From a virus (taxonomy: Duplodnaviria; Heunggongvirae; Uroviricota; Caudoviricetes): 54,166 nt of DNA. The position numbers were made by a program, and so were the translations under genes. The first letter of the stretch is position 1, and every line of letters starts with the position of its first letter. Shown piece by piece: positions 1 to 54,166 of this stretch. The notes beneath the pieces are model-generated. The model saw only the letters and a list, made by a program, of their open reading frames with translations. It made no database searches and was not told where the DNA came from. The DNA is taken from IMG/VR virus record IMGVR_UViG_2872198387_000006. The stretch is one strand, 5' to 3'.

Positions 1-477
1 ATGAAACTCATCAGTAACGATCTGCGCGATGGCGATAAGTTGCCGCATCGTCATGTCTTTAACGGCATGGGTTACGATGGCGATAATATTTCACCGCATC
101 TGGCGTGGGATGATGTTCCTGCGGGAACGAAAAGTTTTGTTGTCACCTGCTACGACCCGGATGCGCCAACCGGCTCCGGCTGGTGGCACTGGGTAGTTGT
201 TAATTTACCCGCTGATACCCGCGTATTACCGCAAGGGTTTGGCTCTGGTCTGGTAGCAATGCCAGACGGCGTTTTGCAGACGCGTACCGATTTTGGTAAA
301 ACCGGATACGATGGCGCAGCGCCGCCGAAAGGCGAAACCCATCGCTACATTTTTACCGTTCACGCGCTGGATGTAGAGCGTATTGATGTCGATGAAGGAG
401 CCAGCGGCGCGATGGTCGGGTTTAACGTTCATTTCCACTCTCTGGCAAGCGCATCGATTACCGCGATGTTTAGTTAA
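1..477 (+). CDS. ybhB: YbhB, PEBP/UPF0098-family protein (host gene flanking the lambda attachment site)
   Basis: 158-aa ORF recognised as E. coli YbhB; lies immediately beside the lambda att core as in E. coli. Confidence 0.85.
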   Translation: MKLISNDLRDGDKLPHRHVFNGMGYDGDNISPHLAWDDVPAGTKSFVVTCYDPDAPTGSGWWHWVVVNLPADTRVLPQGFGSGLVAMPDGVLQTRTDFGKTGYDGAAPPKGETHRYIFTVHALDVERIDVDEGASGAMVGFNVHFHSLASASITAMFS

Positions 478-567
478 TCACTCTGCCAGATGGCGCAATG
501 CCATCTGGTATCACTTAAAGGTATTAAAAACAACTTTTTGTCTTTTTACCTTCCCGTTTCGCTCAAG

Positions 568-740
568 TTAGTATAAAAAAGCTGACCGAGAAACAGTAAA
601 AATCATTAATATCAATGCATTATAATACATTTAGCTTAAAAAATAGACTGCATAATACTGCAAAACACAACATATCCAGTCACTATGAATCAACCACTTA
701 GATGGTATTAGTGACCTGATACAGAGCATTAGCGCAAGGT
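568..740. other. attR: Lambda-type prophage attR: 15-bp core (568-582, TTAGTATAAAAAAGC = reverse complement of GCTTTTTTATACTAA) followed by the attP P arm
   Basis: Core read directly; flanking sequence matches the lambda P arm in reverse complement, with ybhB on the bacterial side. Confidence 0.8.
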
Positions 741-984
741 GATTTTTTGTCCTCTTGCGCTAATTTTTTGTCAACGCACTGGGTTAGCTGAATTTACAAC
801 CATGCTCAGTATCTCGATAAGCGCAGAGAAATGATGCTGTGGTGGGCAGACTACTGGCTTGATGAAAAGGTAGGGCGACCAACCGCGTTTTTTCAGTTCA
901 GTCAGCACATTGAGCCAGAACTTCACCCCTTCATTTTCGGCCAGCCACATCCCCAACAGTTCTTCCTGTTCTTAACTATTTACA

Positions 985-1001
985 GGCGCGTTTTTTTAAA
1001 G
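985..1001 (+). promoter_or_regulatory. MxiE-box-like element upstream of ipaH (GGCGCGTTTTTTTAAAG vs consensus GTATCGTTTTTTTANAG)
   Basis: 14/17 match to the remembered MxiE box consensus, about 60-75 bp upstream of the ipaH ATG, with an AT-rich -10-like region at about 1025-1040. Confidence 0.5.
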
Positions 1002-1059
1002 AATCCTCACTCCATTTGCACGAATATATTAATATATAAACAATGAGGATCAATAATAA

Positions 1060-51039: not shown

Positions 51040-51250
51040 TTTTTGAAGCTATGATTGAAATGATTTATAGTGTTTTTGTTTTTCGTTTTTTCAATGAAAC
51101 AAAAGCAATTTTTTACTATCTTTCGCGTTTCATTGGTTAACGCCTAAAATTTGTACTACAGGCTTGCAAGCCCCACCAAATCTAATCCCATCAGATCCCG
51201 AATAATCCAATGTTCTCCCGGTTTTTTCGTACTTCAAGTGAATCAATACA
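51040..51250 (-). other. attL: Mu attL terminal region carrying the transposase end-binding sites
   Basis: Reverse complement reads TGTATTGATTCACTTGAAGTACGAAAAAACCGGG...CAATGAAACGCGAAAGATAGTAAAAAATTGCTTTTGTTTCATTGAAAAAACG, matching the remembered Mu left end. Confidence 0.8.
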
Positions 51251-51592
51251 CTGGGGCAAACGCTAACCCGTTTCCGCCAGCGTAAACATATGCTGGAAAG
51301 TATTGATAGCGCCAGCCAGAAGCAAATTGATGAGATGTTTAATGCCTATGCTCGCGGTGAACCCAAAGACGAACTGCCGACCGGCATTGACCCCTTGACG
51401 CTAAACGCGGTGCGAAAACTGTTTAAAGAGCCTGGTGTGCAACATACGGCAGAAACGGTGGCGCAGGCACTGACCATCAGCCGCACCACTGCCAGGAGTT
51501 ATCTTGAATATTGCGCCAGCCGCCATCTGATTATTGCTGAAATTGTTCACGGCAAAGTTGGCAGACCACAACGCATATACCACAGTGGGTGA
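51251..51592 (+). pseudogene. dpiA: dpiA (citB) response regulator, 3' fragment; gene interrupted by the Mu-like insertion
   Basis: Reading frame is open from the Mu end (…LGQTLTRFRQRKHMLESIDSASQ…) to ...GRPQRIYHSG; dcuC follows as in E. coli. Confidence 0.7.
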
Positions 51593-51632
51593 CATGATAA
51601 AGCCGGAGGAAACTTGCCTCCGGCATTACTAT

Positions 51633-53018
51633 TTACTTGTCTGTGACCGCTGCTGCCGTTCCTGGCACCATCAGCTCTGTAGCAACGATAACAATCACTA
51701 GCCCAACAAGCACCGGCACCGAGGTGCGTTTTACGACTTCAAATGGTGAGATTTTCGCCATCCCGGCAACCGCAACGACTACGCCAGAAACGGGTGATAG
51801 GGTACGACCCAGGTTTGACGCCTGCAGCATCGGGATAGTCAAATACGCCGGGTTAATGCCGGAAGAGTGCGCCAGTTTCGGGATCATCTCAACAAACGCA
51901 TAAAACGGCGCATTGCCTGAACCGGTCGTGACTGCCGCCAGCATGGTCAGAATCACCAATACCAGCATCAGGATGATACTCGCCGAACCAAACGAGGTAG
52001 CGATAGAAATCAGACTTTGAATAAAGCCGATGGTGCTAAGCCCCTGAGCGAATACCCCAGCGGCAACCAGCAGCATCACCACGTTAGCAAACGCATCTGC
52101 CATCCCGCGATAAGCCACTTCCAGACCAGAGAAAACTTTCTGGGTATTAAAGCTGCGGAGGAACTCCAGAATGGAGGCAATCAGCATACAAATCACCAGA
52201 ATAGTGATGATGTGTAATTGCGGACCCCATTTACCGTCAAAAATCAGTACACCGATGATCGGCGTGAACGGCAAAATGGCATAAAACGCGGGGGCAGTGG
52301 TGGTGATTTCACTGACATCTAACATTTCATGAGAGATGTGCTCTTTTTTATCCAGATAACGTTGCCAGAAGAAGTGGGCGATCGCCATGCCGATAATTGC
52401 AGCAATTGAGATAGGCAGCGTCGTTTTGAAGGCGAAGTCAATCAGCGACATTTCGGAAGCCTGCGCCGCCAGCACCACATCCCCTGAAGTCGGTGCGAGA
52501 ATAATCGCCGCCGGGGAGGCACAAATGGCAGCTGCTGCGCCACGACTGATACCAACGTTTACCATCACCGGAAACAGGGTTGCCATCAGCAAAACACCCA
52601 GACCGGTTGCGGAAGAGACGGCCAGTGACATCAGACAAGCAACAAAATAGGCGGCAATCATCAGCAGGTAAGGGGAGTTAATATACTGCAATGGTTTTGA
52701 CGCCAGCTTGACCACCATATCATTCGCGCCGATATGGGTCATGTAAGCGGCAAAGCCACACAGCATCATAATCATCATGCCGAGGTCGCCGCCGCGGCTC
52801 ATTAGTAATATTTTAACGTATTCAACGATATCCGTGGCGCTGTAGCCTGTTGAAGCCTGGCTGGACGGTAACACTTTGTGCCCCATAATGGCACTGATAA
52901 TCAGCAATAACAGGCCACCGACAAATAACACACCAGTGGCGGAATACCCTTTAATGATGTAGCGAGCCACACCCACAATAACCACAACCCCAATAAGGAG
53001 TTCAATGAATGTCAGCAT
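51633..53018 (-). CDS. dcuC: Anaerobic C4-dicarboxylate transporter DcuC
   Basis: 461 aa from the internal start MLTFIELLIGVVV; polytopic membrane protein. Confidence 0.85.
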   Translation of the reverse strand: MLTFIELLIGVVVIVGVARYIIKGYSATGVLFVGGLLLLIISAIMGHKVLPSSQASTGYSATDIVEYVKILLMSRGGDLGMMIMMLCGFAAYMTHIGANDMVVKLASKPLQYINSPYLLMIAAYFVACLMSLAVSSATGLGVLLMATLFPVMVNVGISRGAAAAICASPAAIILAPTSGDVVLAAQASEMSLIDFAFKTTLPISIAAIIGMAIAHFFWQRYLDKKEHISHEMLDVSEITTTAPAFYAILPFTPIIGVLIFDGKWGPQLHIITILVICMLIASILEFLRSFNTQKVFSGLEVAYRGMADAFANVVMLLVAAGVFAQGLSTIGFIQSLISIATSFGSASIILMLVLVILTMLAAVTTGSGNAPFYAFVEMIPKLAHSSGINPAYLTIPMLQASNLGRTLSPVSGVVVAVAGMAKISPFEVVKRTSVPVLVGLVIVIVATELMVPGTAAAVTDK

Positions 53019-53605
53019 AATTTTTCCTGTCTCCAGGCCCAAAGTAAATAATAAAAACTTCCTAAAGCTTAAGGAAAAAATATGCCCAATAAATTGGCGA
53101 TGAATGCTGATTAAAATCAAGAAAAACTGCCATTAAGACATTGAAGTTGCTGTTTTTATACATAGATAACAAAACGCATATTTAGCGGTTGGCAATTATC
53201 ACATAATAATGTGTGTAAATTGATGGTGGATTGATGCAAATTTGTTAATTGCAATGGTGTTAGCTGCGGCTGTGCGCTCAAAAAATAATCTAATATGAGC
53301 ATGGTTGACGATATATATTATATACTTCGTTAAGATGATTGTTGTATCTCGTTAAAAAAATAAAATAATTTTTCCTTGATTGCATTTTGTCATCAAAAAA
53401 GACTTGGTTTTTCTTTTTTGACTATTCCCATCGCAGAAAACGACGCATCATCTTTAATCGATGCGCGGAAATATTTAACTTGAACAAGCGGAAATAAATA
53501 GAGCAGCTATTCAGATTATTCTTTATGTTGGGTCTATTAAGGTTATGTTAATTGTAGCTTTGCTATGCTAGTAGTAGATTTTTGATAAATGTTTTATGGT
53601 CACAA

Positions 53606-54166
53606 ATGAACGTGAGTAAATATGTCGCTATCTTTTCCTTTGTTTTTATTCAGTTAATCAGCGTTGGTAAAGTTTTTGCTAACGCAGATGAGAGGATGAC
53701 AACGTTTAGAGAAAATATTGCACAAACCTGGCAACAGCCTGAACATTATGATTTATATATTCCTGCCATCACCTGGCATGCACGTTTCGCTTACGACAAA
53801 GAAAAAACCGATCGCTATAACGAGCGACCGTGGGGTGGCGGTTTTGGCCTGTCGCGTTGGGATGAAAAAGGAAACTGGCATGGCCTGTATGCCATGGCAT
53901 TTAAGGACTCGTGGAACAAATGGGAACCGATTGCCGGATACGGATGGGAAAGTACCTGGCGACCGCTGGCGGATGAAAATTTTCATTTAGGTCTGGGATT
54001 CACCGCTGGCGTAACGGCACGCGATAACTGGAATTACATCCCTCTCCCGGTTCTACTGCCATTGGCCTCCGTGGGTTATGGCCCAGTGACTTTTCAGATG
54101 ACCTACATTCCGGGTACCTACAACAATGGCAATGTGTACTTTGCCTGGATGCGCTTTCAGTTTTGA
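53606..54166 (+). CDS. pagP: Lipid A palmitoyltransferase PagP (CrcA)
   Basis: 186 aa from [12 protein letters not shown]...; outer-membrane beta-barrel; conserved position next to dcuC. Confidence 0.85.

Follow-up and report, generated by a model that had tools for sequence, protein, structure and literature searches.

Prophage remnants and insertion sequences join ybhB/att-lambda to dpiA-dcuC-pagP in inverted orientation in a Shigella flexneri chromosome segment

Introduction

Insertion sequences (IS) are known to rearrange Shigella chromosomes: through the inversions and translocations that they mediate, S. flexneri chromosomes differ from one another and from E. coli K-12 (Nie et al. 2006, PMC1550401), and hotspots of rearrangement are described for the genus (Seferbekova et al. 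2021, PMC8072062). The ybhB-dcuC junction treated here is not described in the available parts of either paper. A second related system is the chromosomal “ipaH islands” of Shigella, named in PMC4226921, in which ipaH lies within prophage remnants; ipaH blocks adjoining phage and IS genes are also found in PMC8072062. The window considered here (the whole stretch of DNA analysed, 54,166 nucleotides) is a genuine Shigella flexneri chromosome segment, real but ordinary, in which two core regions are joined through three prophage remnants and several IS copies.

Chromosomal flanks and their orientation

The core features, the attachment core and the last three genes having been identified by comparison with E. 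coli K-12, are as follows.

1-477, plus strand: ybhB, complete, 158 amino acids (PGAP “ybhB: kinase inhibitor”), 98.1% identical to K-12 807909 to 807433 and inverted relative to K-12
568-582, minus strand: 15-bp att-lambda core, TTAGTATAAAAAAGC, in an attR-type junction (bio-side B' arm, core, phage P arm)
51251-51592, plus strand: 3' half of dpiA, codons 114-226, a pseudogene
51633-53018, minus strand: dcuC, 461 amino acids
53606-54166, plus strand: pagP, 186 amino acids, its stop codon forming the end of the window

The left flank (1-582; ybhB and the att-lambda core) matches K-12 NC_000913.3 from 807909 to 807328 at 98.1%. Homology breaks off at 582, precisely the last base of the core, and the adjoining P arm presumably resembles that of lambda attP. 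The right flank (51251-54166; the dpiA 3' half, dcuC, and pagP) matches K-12 654201-657117 at 98.8%. The K-12 genes lie at 653862-654542 (dpiA, plus), 654583-655968 (dcuC, minus), 656557-657117 (pagP, plus), and 807433-807909 (ybhB, minus), with a spacing of 153 kb between the two flanks. In the window, dcuC (minus) and pagP (plus) are oriented as in K-12 and ybhB is on the plus strand; ybhB is therefore flipped relative to dcuC and pagP. The core flanks thus stand head-to-head with respect to the reference order, 1-582 in reverse and 51251-54166 forward. The 50.7 kb separating them consists of lambda-like (583-38108), myovirus (39358-47125), and Mu-like (48390-51250) DNA plus six IS copies, which make up 14% of its length. 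These measurements bear out the original prediction, which had put ybhB and dcuC/pagP about 150 kb apart in K-12, with ybhB inverted here and about 50 kb of prophage and IS DNA bridging the flanks. A search of 5,426 complete E. coli genomes found the right-hand junction in none.

The lambda-like ipaH prophage

The DNA adjoining ybhB is a decayed prophage with the following parts.

1060-2823, plus strand: ipaH, intact, 587 amino acids, with LRR_TTSS and NEL E3 ligase domains (Pfam PF12468, PF14496; PGAP IpaHa), cargo at the attR end
3003-24563, minus strand: lambda-like late region, in the order tail fibre, Lom, J, I, K, L, M, tape measure, T/G, V, U, Z, FII/FI, E, D, C, portal, W, terminase A, truncated Nu1 (comparison with EIEC FDAARGOS_943)
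24564-25647, minus strand: IS600a, 1,084 bp from the IRR end, interrupted by an IS629-like element (sequence comparison)
25648-26953, plus strand: IS3-family element with a GTG direct repeat on both sides and an ALIL pseudoknot at 25983-26099
26957-28012, plus strand: 9 nt of IS600a followed by a snap-back to IS600b, which is partial and inverted, has its IRR end at 28012, and lacks 25 nt internally
28013-38108, minus strand except for the Gp49 toxin/HTH antitoxin (plus): lysis, Q, and replication part, with Rz, lysozyme, a 209-aa protein, holin, four tRNAs (30599-30909), Q, NinH, DnaB, DnaC-like and O-like proteins, Rha/Ash with C4 and isrK RNAs, Gp49 toxin/HTH antitoxin, NinE, NinB, a 92-aa protein, and the final ~64 codons of a toprim primase

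Read inward from attR, the order (ipaH, tail fibre, J ... Nu1, lysis, Q, replication) is lambda-type. The exact IpaH protein is present in 342 blocks by protein look-up, and EIEC and other Shigella share this ipaH/ybhB end. Of the late region (3003-24563), 97% is covered at 98.5% by the prophage that EIEC FDAARGOS_943 carries at att-lambda. The window's prophage is defective, with split J, portal, and terminase A genes and a short tape measure of 790 aa rather than 1013 aa. Terminase A is intact (642 aa) in L048 and L049 and split (488 + 169 aa) in L051. The part from 28013 to 38108 is mosaic, with an internal joint at 35.45-36.29 kb that has no IS. Neither int-xis nor attL beside ybhC occurs within the window, where the prophage breaks off at 38108, the 3' end of the primase gene; both are present in relatives. 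A capsid look-up found similar lambda-like head genes in other prophages.

The IS cluster at 24.5-28.0 kb had been predicted to join two phage backbones, a reading that does not hold. UGYU01000001.1 keeps the missing 1.5 kb of cos/Nu1 DNA, with a complete IS600 on each side, colinear with an EIEC att-lambda prophage. The joint is therefore a deletion scar internal to one prophage, and an origin of 1-24.5 kb and 28-38 kb from two different phages is rejected. Judging from its end-points, 26957-28012 appears to be the scar of a ~1.87-kb stem-loop deletion. The IS3-family element, which we take from its ends to be IS629/IS1203-like, is a simple insertion inside IS600a, since the GTG repeat surrounds it.

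The IS911 joint, myovirus block, and Mu-like end

Beyond the primase, the window contains the following features.

38109-39357, minus strand: IS911, flanks CGG and GAT, no target-site duplication
39358-47125, plus strand: head module of a SEN34/vB_EcoM-689R2-like temperate myovirus (sequence comparison), with Terminase_3 (split by IS2), portal (DUF1073), Mu F-like protein, DUF2213, cement protein, major capsid, and, at its end, an 81-aa gene cut by IS600
40051-41381, plus strand: IS2, inside the terminase gene, 5-bp target duplication GCAAT
47126-48389, minus strand: IS600c, full length (1,264 bp), flanks AAT and ATA, no target-site duplication
48390-51250, minus strand: left end of a Mu-like prophage (window 48389-51250 corresponds to phage Mu nt 2963 to 1, 96.6%)
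48387-50021, minus strand: truncated Mu A, 544 aa (Pfam HTH_Tnp_Mu_1/2, DDE_2, Mu-transpos_C)
49996-50250, minus strand: ner
50404-50913, plus strand: repressor c
51223-51250: Mu left terminus, with Mu nt 1 at window 51250

Target-site duplications are missing only at IS911 and IS600c, and are present at IS2 (GCAAT) and the IS629-like element (GTG). The two copies that lack them therefore look like recombination joints, and each lies exactly at a breakpoint between segments unrelated in the ancestor. IS2, which the earlier IS list had omitted, is a simple insertion.

IS911 is a strain-variable recombination joint: its IRR side adjoins the toprim 3' end, and its IRL side the terminase of another phage. 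A position within xis was considered, FDAARGOS_944 having IS911 in xisR, and was rejected: the left flank is the toprim primase 3' end followed by NinB, and the xisR match is IS-to-IS only. The half-junction of the toprim 3' end with IRR also occurs in CP026871.1 (L047), where int'-ybhC lies on the IRL side. The half-junction of IRL with Rz1-DedA-254aa-terminase also occurs in four genomes (L034, L035, L038, L041); the 1,731 bp adjoining IRL there (Rz1-DedA-254aa) is missing exactly from the window. In CP026810.1 (L026), the primase gene carries a simple IS911 insertion with a GGAG repeat. Four flanks adjoin either IRR or IRL, depending on the genome, so that homologous recombination alone is insufficient and transposase-driven steps, independent insertions, or a different path are needed.

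IS600c joins the myovirus head gene to the truncated Mu A gene. A Mu origin for the myovirus block is rejected, as it matches SEN34/vB_EcoM-689R2-type phages. The topology of the IS600c joint in CP055132.1 (ybhC-int'-...-terminase-...-Mu'-dpiA') and similar genomes is that of a circle or duplication junction, so the history may be multi-step.

The Mu-like left end is inserted at dpiA codon 113/114, and this chromosomal breakpoint was made by Mu transposition. The right end of Mu is absent, and thus the 5-bp target duplication is absent too. The truncated Mu A protein is matched exactly in 945 collection blocks, CP001383.1 and LM651928.1 among them, and all the named ones are S. flexneri; a scan for the Mu/dpiA junction returned two records only, as 8-kb loci.

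The original prediction of three phage backbones stands in number, as the lambda-like ipaH phage, the SEN34-like head module, and Mu, with 1-24.5 and 28-38.1 kb not counting as two. IS elements had been expected at each joint. They are found at 38.1-39.4 kb (IS911, between the primase 3' end and a foreign terminase) and at 47.1-48.4 kb (IS600c), whereas the core breakpoint in dpiA is the Mu left end.

Arrangements in other S. flexneri genomes

Partners of the IS911 joint are many and varied among other complete S. flexneri genomes, and include ancestral ybhC-int-prophage-ybhB layouts. Un-rearranged left ends (ybhJ-ybhC-int'-...-NinB...) occur in L026, L028, and L047, and the un-inverted order ybhB-ipaH-...-int-ybhC is kept in L016, L018, and L021; ybhC-int'-...-toprim-NinB... 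is the un-rearranged alternative in related S. flexneri. In five other assemblies (L034, L036, L039, L040, L041), the lambda-like early region lies at most 10 kb from the myovirus block in the window's orientation. The myovirus block has at least eight distinct left partners among the assemblies sampled. S. flexneri records have a dacA-pagP-dcuC block opposite to K-12 at 0.69-0.71 Mb, and others have ipaH-ybhB-bioA as in K-12 at 0.72-0.75 Mb; past pagP, the chromosome runs cspE-crcB-tatE-lipA-lipB-dacA. The arrangement is not universal, since in CP034931.1 the myovirus/Mu/dcuC block lies at 0.93 Mb, unlinked from ipaH/ybhB at 2.72 Mb. A full stepwise reconstruction of all S. flexneri layouts is under-determined.

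Origin of the arrangement

Most probably, the ~153-kb interval that runs from dpiA to att-lambda in K-12 was inverted through IS911, with local deletions afterwards, and the window is one end of that inversion. The reciprocal junction would lie outside the window; a search with truncated-integrase homologues toward it returned fragment clusters on short contigs only. IS- and prophage-mediated inversion with deletion, as first proposed, agrees with the flank orientation, the two IS without target duplications, and the un-rearranged relatives; the inversion itself we infer, as we do the order of events and the role of IS911 rather than IS600c in carrying the orientation flip.

A lambda-like phage with ipaH would have integrated at att-lambda, leaving the attR junction beside ybhB, and a Mu-like phage would have transposed into dpiA; a SEN34-like myovirus prophage would have been present as well. 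IS600, IS911, IS2, and the IS629-like element would have seeded these prophages. Through an IS600-borne event, the head module of the myovirus would then have become fused to the truncated Mu A gene, a fusion that is fixed in S. flexneri. A later IS911-borne event would have connected the att-lambda prophage, at its primase end, with the terminase of the myovirus, in its likeliest form as an exchange between the primase-gene IS911 and a second, inverted copy in the lysis region of the myovirus, with everything between them flipped. The 1.73-kb deletion beside IS911 (Rz1-DedA-254aa) would have followed. A separate event would have deleted the ~1.87-kb stem-loop between the inverted IS600 copies of the lambda-like prophage.

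A multi-step history is a possible but distinctly less likely account. The decisive exchange would then have been carried by the IS600c joint or by an IS600 beside the primase gene, with the IS911 joint a later local deletion; in one version, tandem or hybrid prophages would have formed at att-lambda, after which the interval was excised and reintegrated or underwent at least two nested inversions. EIEC VL40 has a SEN34-like myovirus itself at att-lambda with the same ipaH/ybhB end, and CP055132.1 reads ybhC-int'-IS600-holin/R'-IS66-IS600-IS911-terminase-...-Mu'-dpiA'. The commonest layout (L034, L036, L039, L040) is primase5'-35aa-IS600-holin5'(inverted)-...-IS911-Rz1, and its IS600 junctions resemble reciprocal partners of those in L026 and L042. 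The swapping of flanks between IS911 ends also indicates events beyond simple recombination. However, all the intermediates required are seen in no single genome, and known copies plus one adjacent deletion explain each IS911 half-junction, which is more parsimonious for this strain.

It is highly improbable that the window is an assembly artefact, a chimeric join over the 1.25-kb IS911 repeat in which ybhB and dcuC are not truly linked. CP026776.1 is the sole record with the exact toprim 3'-IS911-terminase junction; its identity to the window is 100% across 20.6 kb (window 19458-40087), and it is probably the source record and so not independent; a 40-mer of the toprim 3'-IS911 junction had no matches in the genome_contigs scan, a junction-specific 68-aa ORF had no record on look-up, and neighbouring strains vary at this IS911. 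Yet both half-junctions occur in independent assemblies (L047; L038 and L041), the same prophage blocks adjoin in the same orientation in the five other complete genomes, all remaining window junctions are reproduced at 99.9% or better in independent records, and core-gene orientation around the blocks agrees in other S. flexneri chromosomes.

Simple deletion of ~150 kb between dpiA and att-lambda, for which nothing speaks but the proximity of the flanks, has practically no chance of being correct: it would keep the K-12 relative orientation and is refuted by the flipped ybhB, the interval is present, as cspE-crcB-tatE-lipA-lipB-dacA continues past pagP, and in K-12 that interval includes essential genes.

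The att-lambda ipaH prophage, together with the dpiA::Mu/myovirus composite, may tentatively be regarded as a recurrent recombination hub in S. flexneri, at which IS911 and IS600 copies repeatedly re-pair the same few flanks, partly by transposase-driven, IR-targeted events in addition to RecA recombination. Such a hub, if true, would toggle a ~150-kb inversion and yield the many layouts among complete genomes.

Comparison with known systems

This kind of rearrangement is already well documented in Shigella, and the locus is a worked example with no new principle. Its value is mainly practical, in accounting for the ybhB-dcuC neighbourhood of this S. flexneri genome. In addition, dpiA is a Mu-disrupted pseudogene throughout S. 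flexneri, an intact ipaH effector gene survives the decay of its carrier phage, and the strain-variable IS911 joint at 37-40 kb can mislead assembly, synteny-based orthology, and typing.

The left end resembles phage Mu or D108 in its c-ner-A order, its terminal sequence (96.6% to Mu nt 1-2963), and its insertion within a gene; unlike such a prophage, it retains 2.9 kb, with A cut at Mu nt ~2963 by IS600 and no right end. As in inverted-repeat (stem-loop or palindrome) excision, an inverted IS600 pair that surrounds 1.5 kb in a relative is here collapsed to a palindrome joined at a natural quasi-palindrome, and, as in IS-adjacent deletions, exactly 1,731 bp beside an IS911 end is gone; in both cases the end-points suggest the mechanism. 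As in ipaH islands, an intact ipaH is embedded in a decayed lambda-like prophage, here at its attR end and beside ybhB. The EIEC FDAARGOS_943 prophage, unlike that of the window, is complete up to the immunity region. In several larger Shigella-type chromosomes the prophage is reduced with int and ybhC still flanking, whereas in the window other phage DNA replaces the int/attL side. The locus shares with the IS-mediated inversions and translocations reported for Shigella (PMC1550401, PMC8072062) the presence of IS at breakpoints, flipped core blocks, strain differences, and reused hotspots. In contrast to the cases available from those papers, the IS here lie inside prophage remnants and one core breakpoint is a Mu end.

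Chromosomal Flanks and Overall Organization

The first 582 bases of the window are NC_000913.3 807909->807328 (Escherichia coli K-12, reversed; 98.1% identity), and the last 2,916 bases are K-12 654201-657117, forward (98.8%). In K-12, these loci lie 153 kb apart, with ybhB and dcuC both on the minus strand; the window has ybhB on the plus strand but leaves dcuC and pagP oriented as in K-12. By these coordinates and strands, the predicted synteny break and relative inversion of ybhB are therefore real. IS elements account for 14% of the 50.7-kb span between the flanks.

Features of the window (IRL and IRR in the text denote the two inverted-repeat ends of IS911 or IS600)
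1-477, plus strand: ybhB, complete
568-582: att-lambda core, 15 bp; K-12 homology stops exactly at its end
Start of the lambda-like prophage, before ipaH: attR-type junction
1060-2823: ipaH, intact, with LRR_TTSS and NEL domains
3003-24563: late genes (tail fibre, J, tape measure, head genes, portal, terminase), ending in a truncated Nu1
24564-28012: IS cluster, including IS600a (1,084 bp from its IRR end) and an IS629-like element (25648-26953; GTG target repeat)
After the cluster: Rz, lysozyme, holin, four tRNAs, Q, NinH
Beyond NinH: DnaB/DnaC-like/O-like replication set
Beyond that set: Ash/Rha region with C4 and isrK RNAs
Prophage end: Gp49-type toxin/antitoxin pair, NinE, NinB, last ~64 codons of a toprim primase
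38109-39357: IS911, without target duplication
39358-47125: head module of a temperate myovirus resembling SEN34/vB_EcoM-689R2
40051-41381: IS2 within the head module, with a clean GCAAT duplication
47126-48389: IS600c, a full IS600 copy without target duplication
48390-51250: phage Mu nt 2963->1, 96.6%
Within the right-hand 2,916 bases: dpiA from codon 114 on, then dcuC and pagP

Among the complete E. coli genomes, three, all EIEC, have the ybhB-ipaH left end. Over 20,630 bp (19458-40087), the window matches CP026776.1, probably its source record, with 0 mismatches. Upstream of ipaH, 583-1059 holds phage P-arm-like sequence and then short transposase and hypothetical-gene fragments; in the equivalent region of FDAARGOS_943, PGAP marks two partial pseudogenes. 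The myovirus head module encodes Terminase_3, portal, a Mu F-like protein, DUF2213, cement protein, and capsid. The Mu-like segment carries A (shortened to 544 aa), ner, c, and the left terminus, which adjoins dpiA nt 340. Across 48390-51592, dpiA is a pseudogene, the Mu-like phage end following directly after codon 113. Every S. flexneri record seen has this junction, one of them a 1915 isolate, and no complete E. coli genome does (right-hand junction, 0 of 5,426); the junction's 39-mer is matched in S. flexneri SFBU1023. The truncated Mu transposase (48387-50021) recurs residue for residue in 945 public-assembly blocks, including CP001383.1 and LM651928.1 (S. flexneri NCTC1).

The Lambda-like ipaH Prophage

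A single defective lambda-like prophage, oriented relative to bio as lambda normally is, occupies 583-38108; split J, portal, and terminase A genes and a short tape measure mean that it is dead. The late genes (3003-24563) match the att-lambda prophage of EIEC FDAARGOS_943 with 98.5% identity over 97% of their length.

The original prediction took the IS cluster at 24.5-28.0 kb for a joint between phage backbones, but comparison with UGYU01000001.1 places it inside this prophage. The cluster is a palindromic IS600 pair with the IS629-like element at its centre: IS600a is cut by that element, resumes beyond it for 9 nt, and then snaps back into the inverted copy IS600b, the turn-back point being a natural quasi-palindrome, TCCTAAAGTGCCTTCAGGA, inside IS600. 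In UGYU01000001.1 (L050 12075-17417), a full IS600b is followed by a 1,506-bp cos/Nu1 stretch that is colinear with the EIEC prophage, and then by IS600a with its IS629 insertion; the two complete inverted copies are thus 1.5 kb apart, with flanks 100% identical to those of the window. As this assembly represents an earlier state that keeps the cos/Nu1 DNA, the window has lost a stem-loop of ~1.87 kb.

Several further features lie in the part of the prophage beyond the cluster. The tRNA cluster at 30599-30909 (minus strand), between Q and holin, comprises Gly-TCC, Thr-TGT, Arg-TCT, and a tRNA with a CAT anticodon, labeled tRNA-Ile by PGAP in the EIEC homologue. Rfam matches to C4 antisense RNA (74.8 bits) and isrK (58.1 bits) at 36051-36239 (minus strand), within the Ash/Rha region, mark an antirepressor control module of the P1/P7 immI-like type within the nin region. 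The Gp49 (HigB/RelE-like) toxin and HTH antitoxin (~36315-36942, plus strand) run opposite to the neighbouring phage genes, and the toxin ORF spans 76-129 aa across relatives. A mosaic joint at 35448-36287 contains no IS: to its left, the early region resembles the mlrA-site prophage of FDAARGOS_944 (99.2%), and to its right the match is the att-lambda prophage of FDAARGOS_943 (97.4%). Two replication modules, primase and O/DnaC/DnaB, thus survive as remnants. Of the primase, the window retains only the last ~64 codons; the full-length, 968-aa protein of relatives (L031 6745-9651; L026 5493-8176) has LAGLIDADG_3 and Hom_end_hint Pfam matches, which suggest an intein or homing endonuclease insert.

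Layouts across S. flexneri

The block running from IS2/terminase through capsid, IS600, the truncated Mu and dpiA, to dcuC and pagP is at least 99.9% conserved in every S. flexneri record seen; because these include NCTC1 (1915), both the Mu insertion and the joint at IS600c are of long standing. The DNA to the left of the myovirus terminase differs between records.

Neighbours of the two sides of the IS911 joint (L numbers are loci in other assemblies; primes mark truncated pieces)
Left of terminase, Rz1-DedA-254aa with IS911 before it: L034, L035, L038-L041
Beyond that IS911, inverted DUF1133-tRNA-holin' piece, IS600, and primase 5' part: L034, L035, L039, L040
Left of terminase, lambda-like early region cut at 34317: L041
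Left of terminase, cstA-ybdL: L037, L038
Left of terminase, ybhC-int'-IS600-holin/R'-IS66: L042
IS911 directly at 39358: L005, L042, window
Primase/NinB end joined to ybhJ-ybhC-int' (ancestral attL side): L026, L028, L047
Primase/NinB end joined to modC-ybhA-int': L027, L029, L030, L032
Primase/NinB end joined to fixB: L031
Primase/NinB end joined to a DLP12-like remnant: L025

Two S. flexneri assemblies have a group II intron (RVT_1 and GIIM) within the IS911 upstream of the myovirus block (L033 5303-6826; L037 5303-6811). In CP034931.1, 1.8 Mb separates the ipaH/ybhB end from the myovirus/Mu/dcuC block; five other assemblies (L034, L036, L039, L040, L041) have the lambda-like early region <10 kb from the myovirus block and oriented as in the window. 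Where records use K-12-like numbering, dacA->pagP->dcuC runs against the K-12 direction at 0.69-0.71 Mb, and ipaH-ybhB-bioA runs along it at 0.72-0.75 Mb. Because the two orientations come from different records, their agreement is consistent with an inversion rather than proof of it.

Origin of the Arrangement

The window IS911 has the primase 3' flank at IRR and the terminase at IRL. The primase half-junction is shared with CP026871.1, whose IRL bears int'-ybhC, and in CP026810.1 the primase gene carries a simple IS911 insertion (GGAG repeat) 124 bp farther in. The IRL half-junction equals the common IS911-IRL|Rz1-DedA-254aa-terminase junction minus exactly 1,731 bp adjoining IRL. We consider inversion between two IS911 copies, followed by IS-adjacent deletion, the probable route. 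In a K-12-ordered ancestor, the primase and Rz1-side IS911 copies would have been inverted relative to each other; their recombination would flip the interval, giving ybhB...NinB-toprim3'|IS911|Rz1...terminase...Mu'-dpiA'-dcuC, and a later deletion beside the IS would produce the present arrangement. The predicted IS- and prophage-mediated inversion and deletion stands in part: it fits the flank orientation and the lack of target duplications at IS911 and IS600c, but the 24.5-28.0 kb cluster is internal to one phage.

Four different flanks adjoin either IRR or IRL, depending on the genome, a pattern that homologous recombination alone cannot produce, so transposase-driven events probably also took part; independent insertions at identical sites are an alternative source of these swaps. 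IS911 undergoes IR-targeted reinsertion and forms IS dimers. Swapped ends or flanks (38109/39357 in the window) occur in the window, L005, L025, L034, L036, L041, L042, and L047.

A route of several steps, by way of the IS600 copies or of tandem att-lambda prophages, is a serious though less likely rival to the IS911 inversion. It is favoured by EIEC VL40, where the myovirus itself occupies att-lambda and shares that ipaH end. Chimeric assembly is very improbable because both half-junctions and all other window junctions are reproduced independently. Plain deletion between dpiA and att-lambda is excluded: it gives the wrong flank orientation, and the chromosome runs on through pagP-cspE...dacA.

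Relation to Known Rearrangements

The window's arrangement is already present in deposited complete genomes, and the finding is known in kind. Part of the literature on Shigella describes six inversions and one translocation, IS-mediated, between the S. flexneri genomes Sf8401 and Sf301 (PMC1550401), as well as rearrangement hotspots and phage- and IS-associated ipaH blocks (PMC8072062); conserved "ipaH islands" have also been described (PMC4226921).
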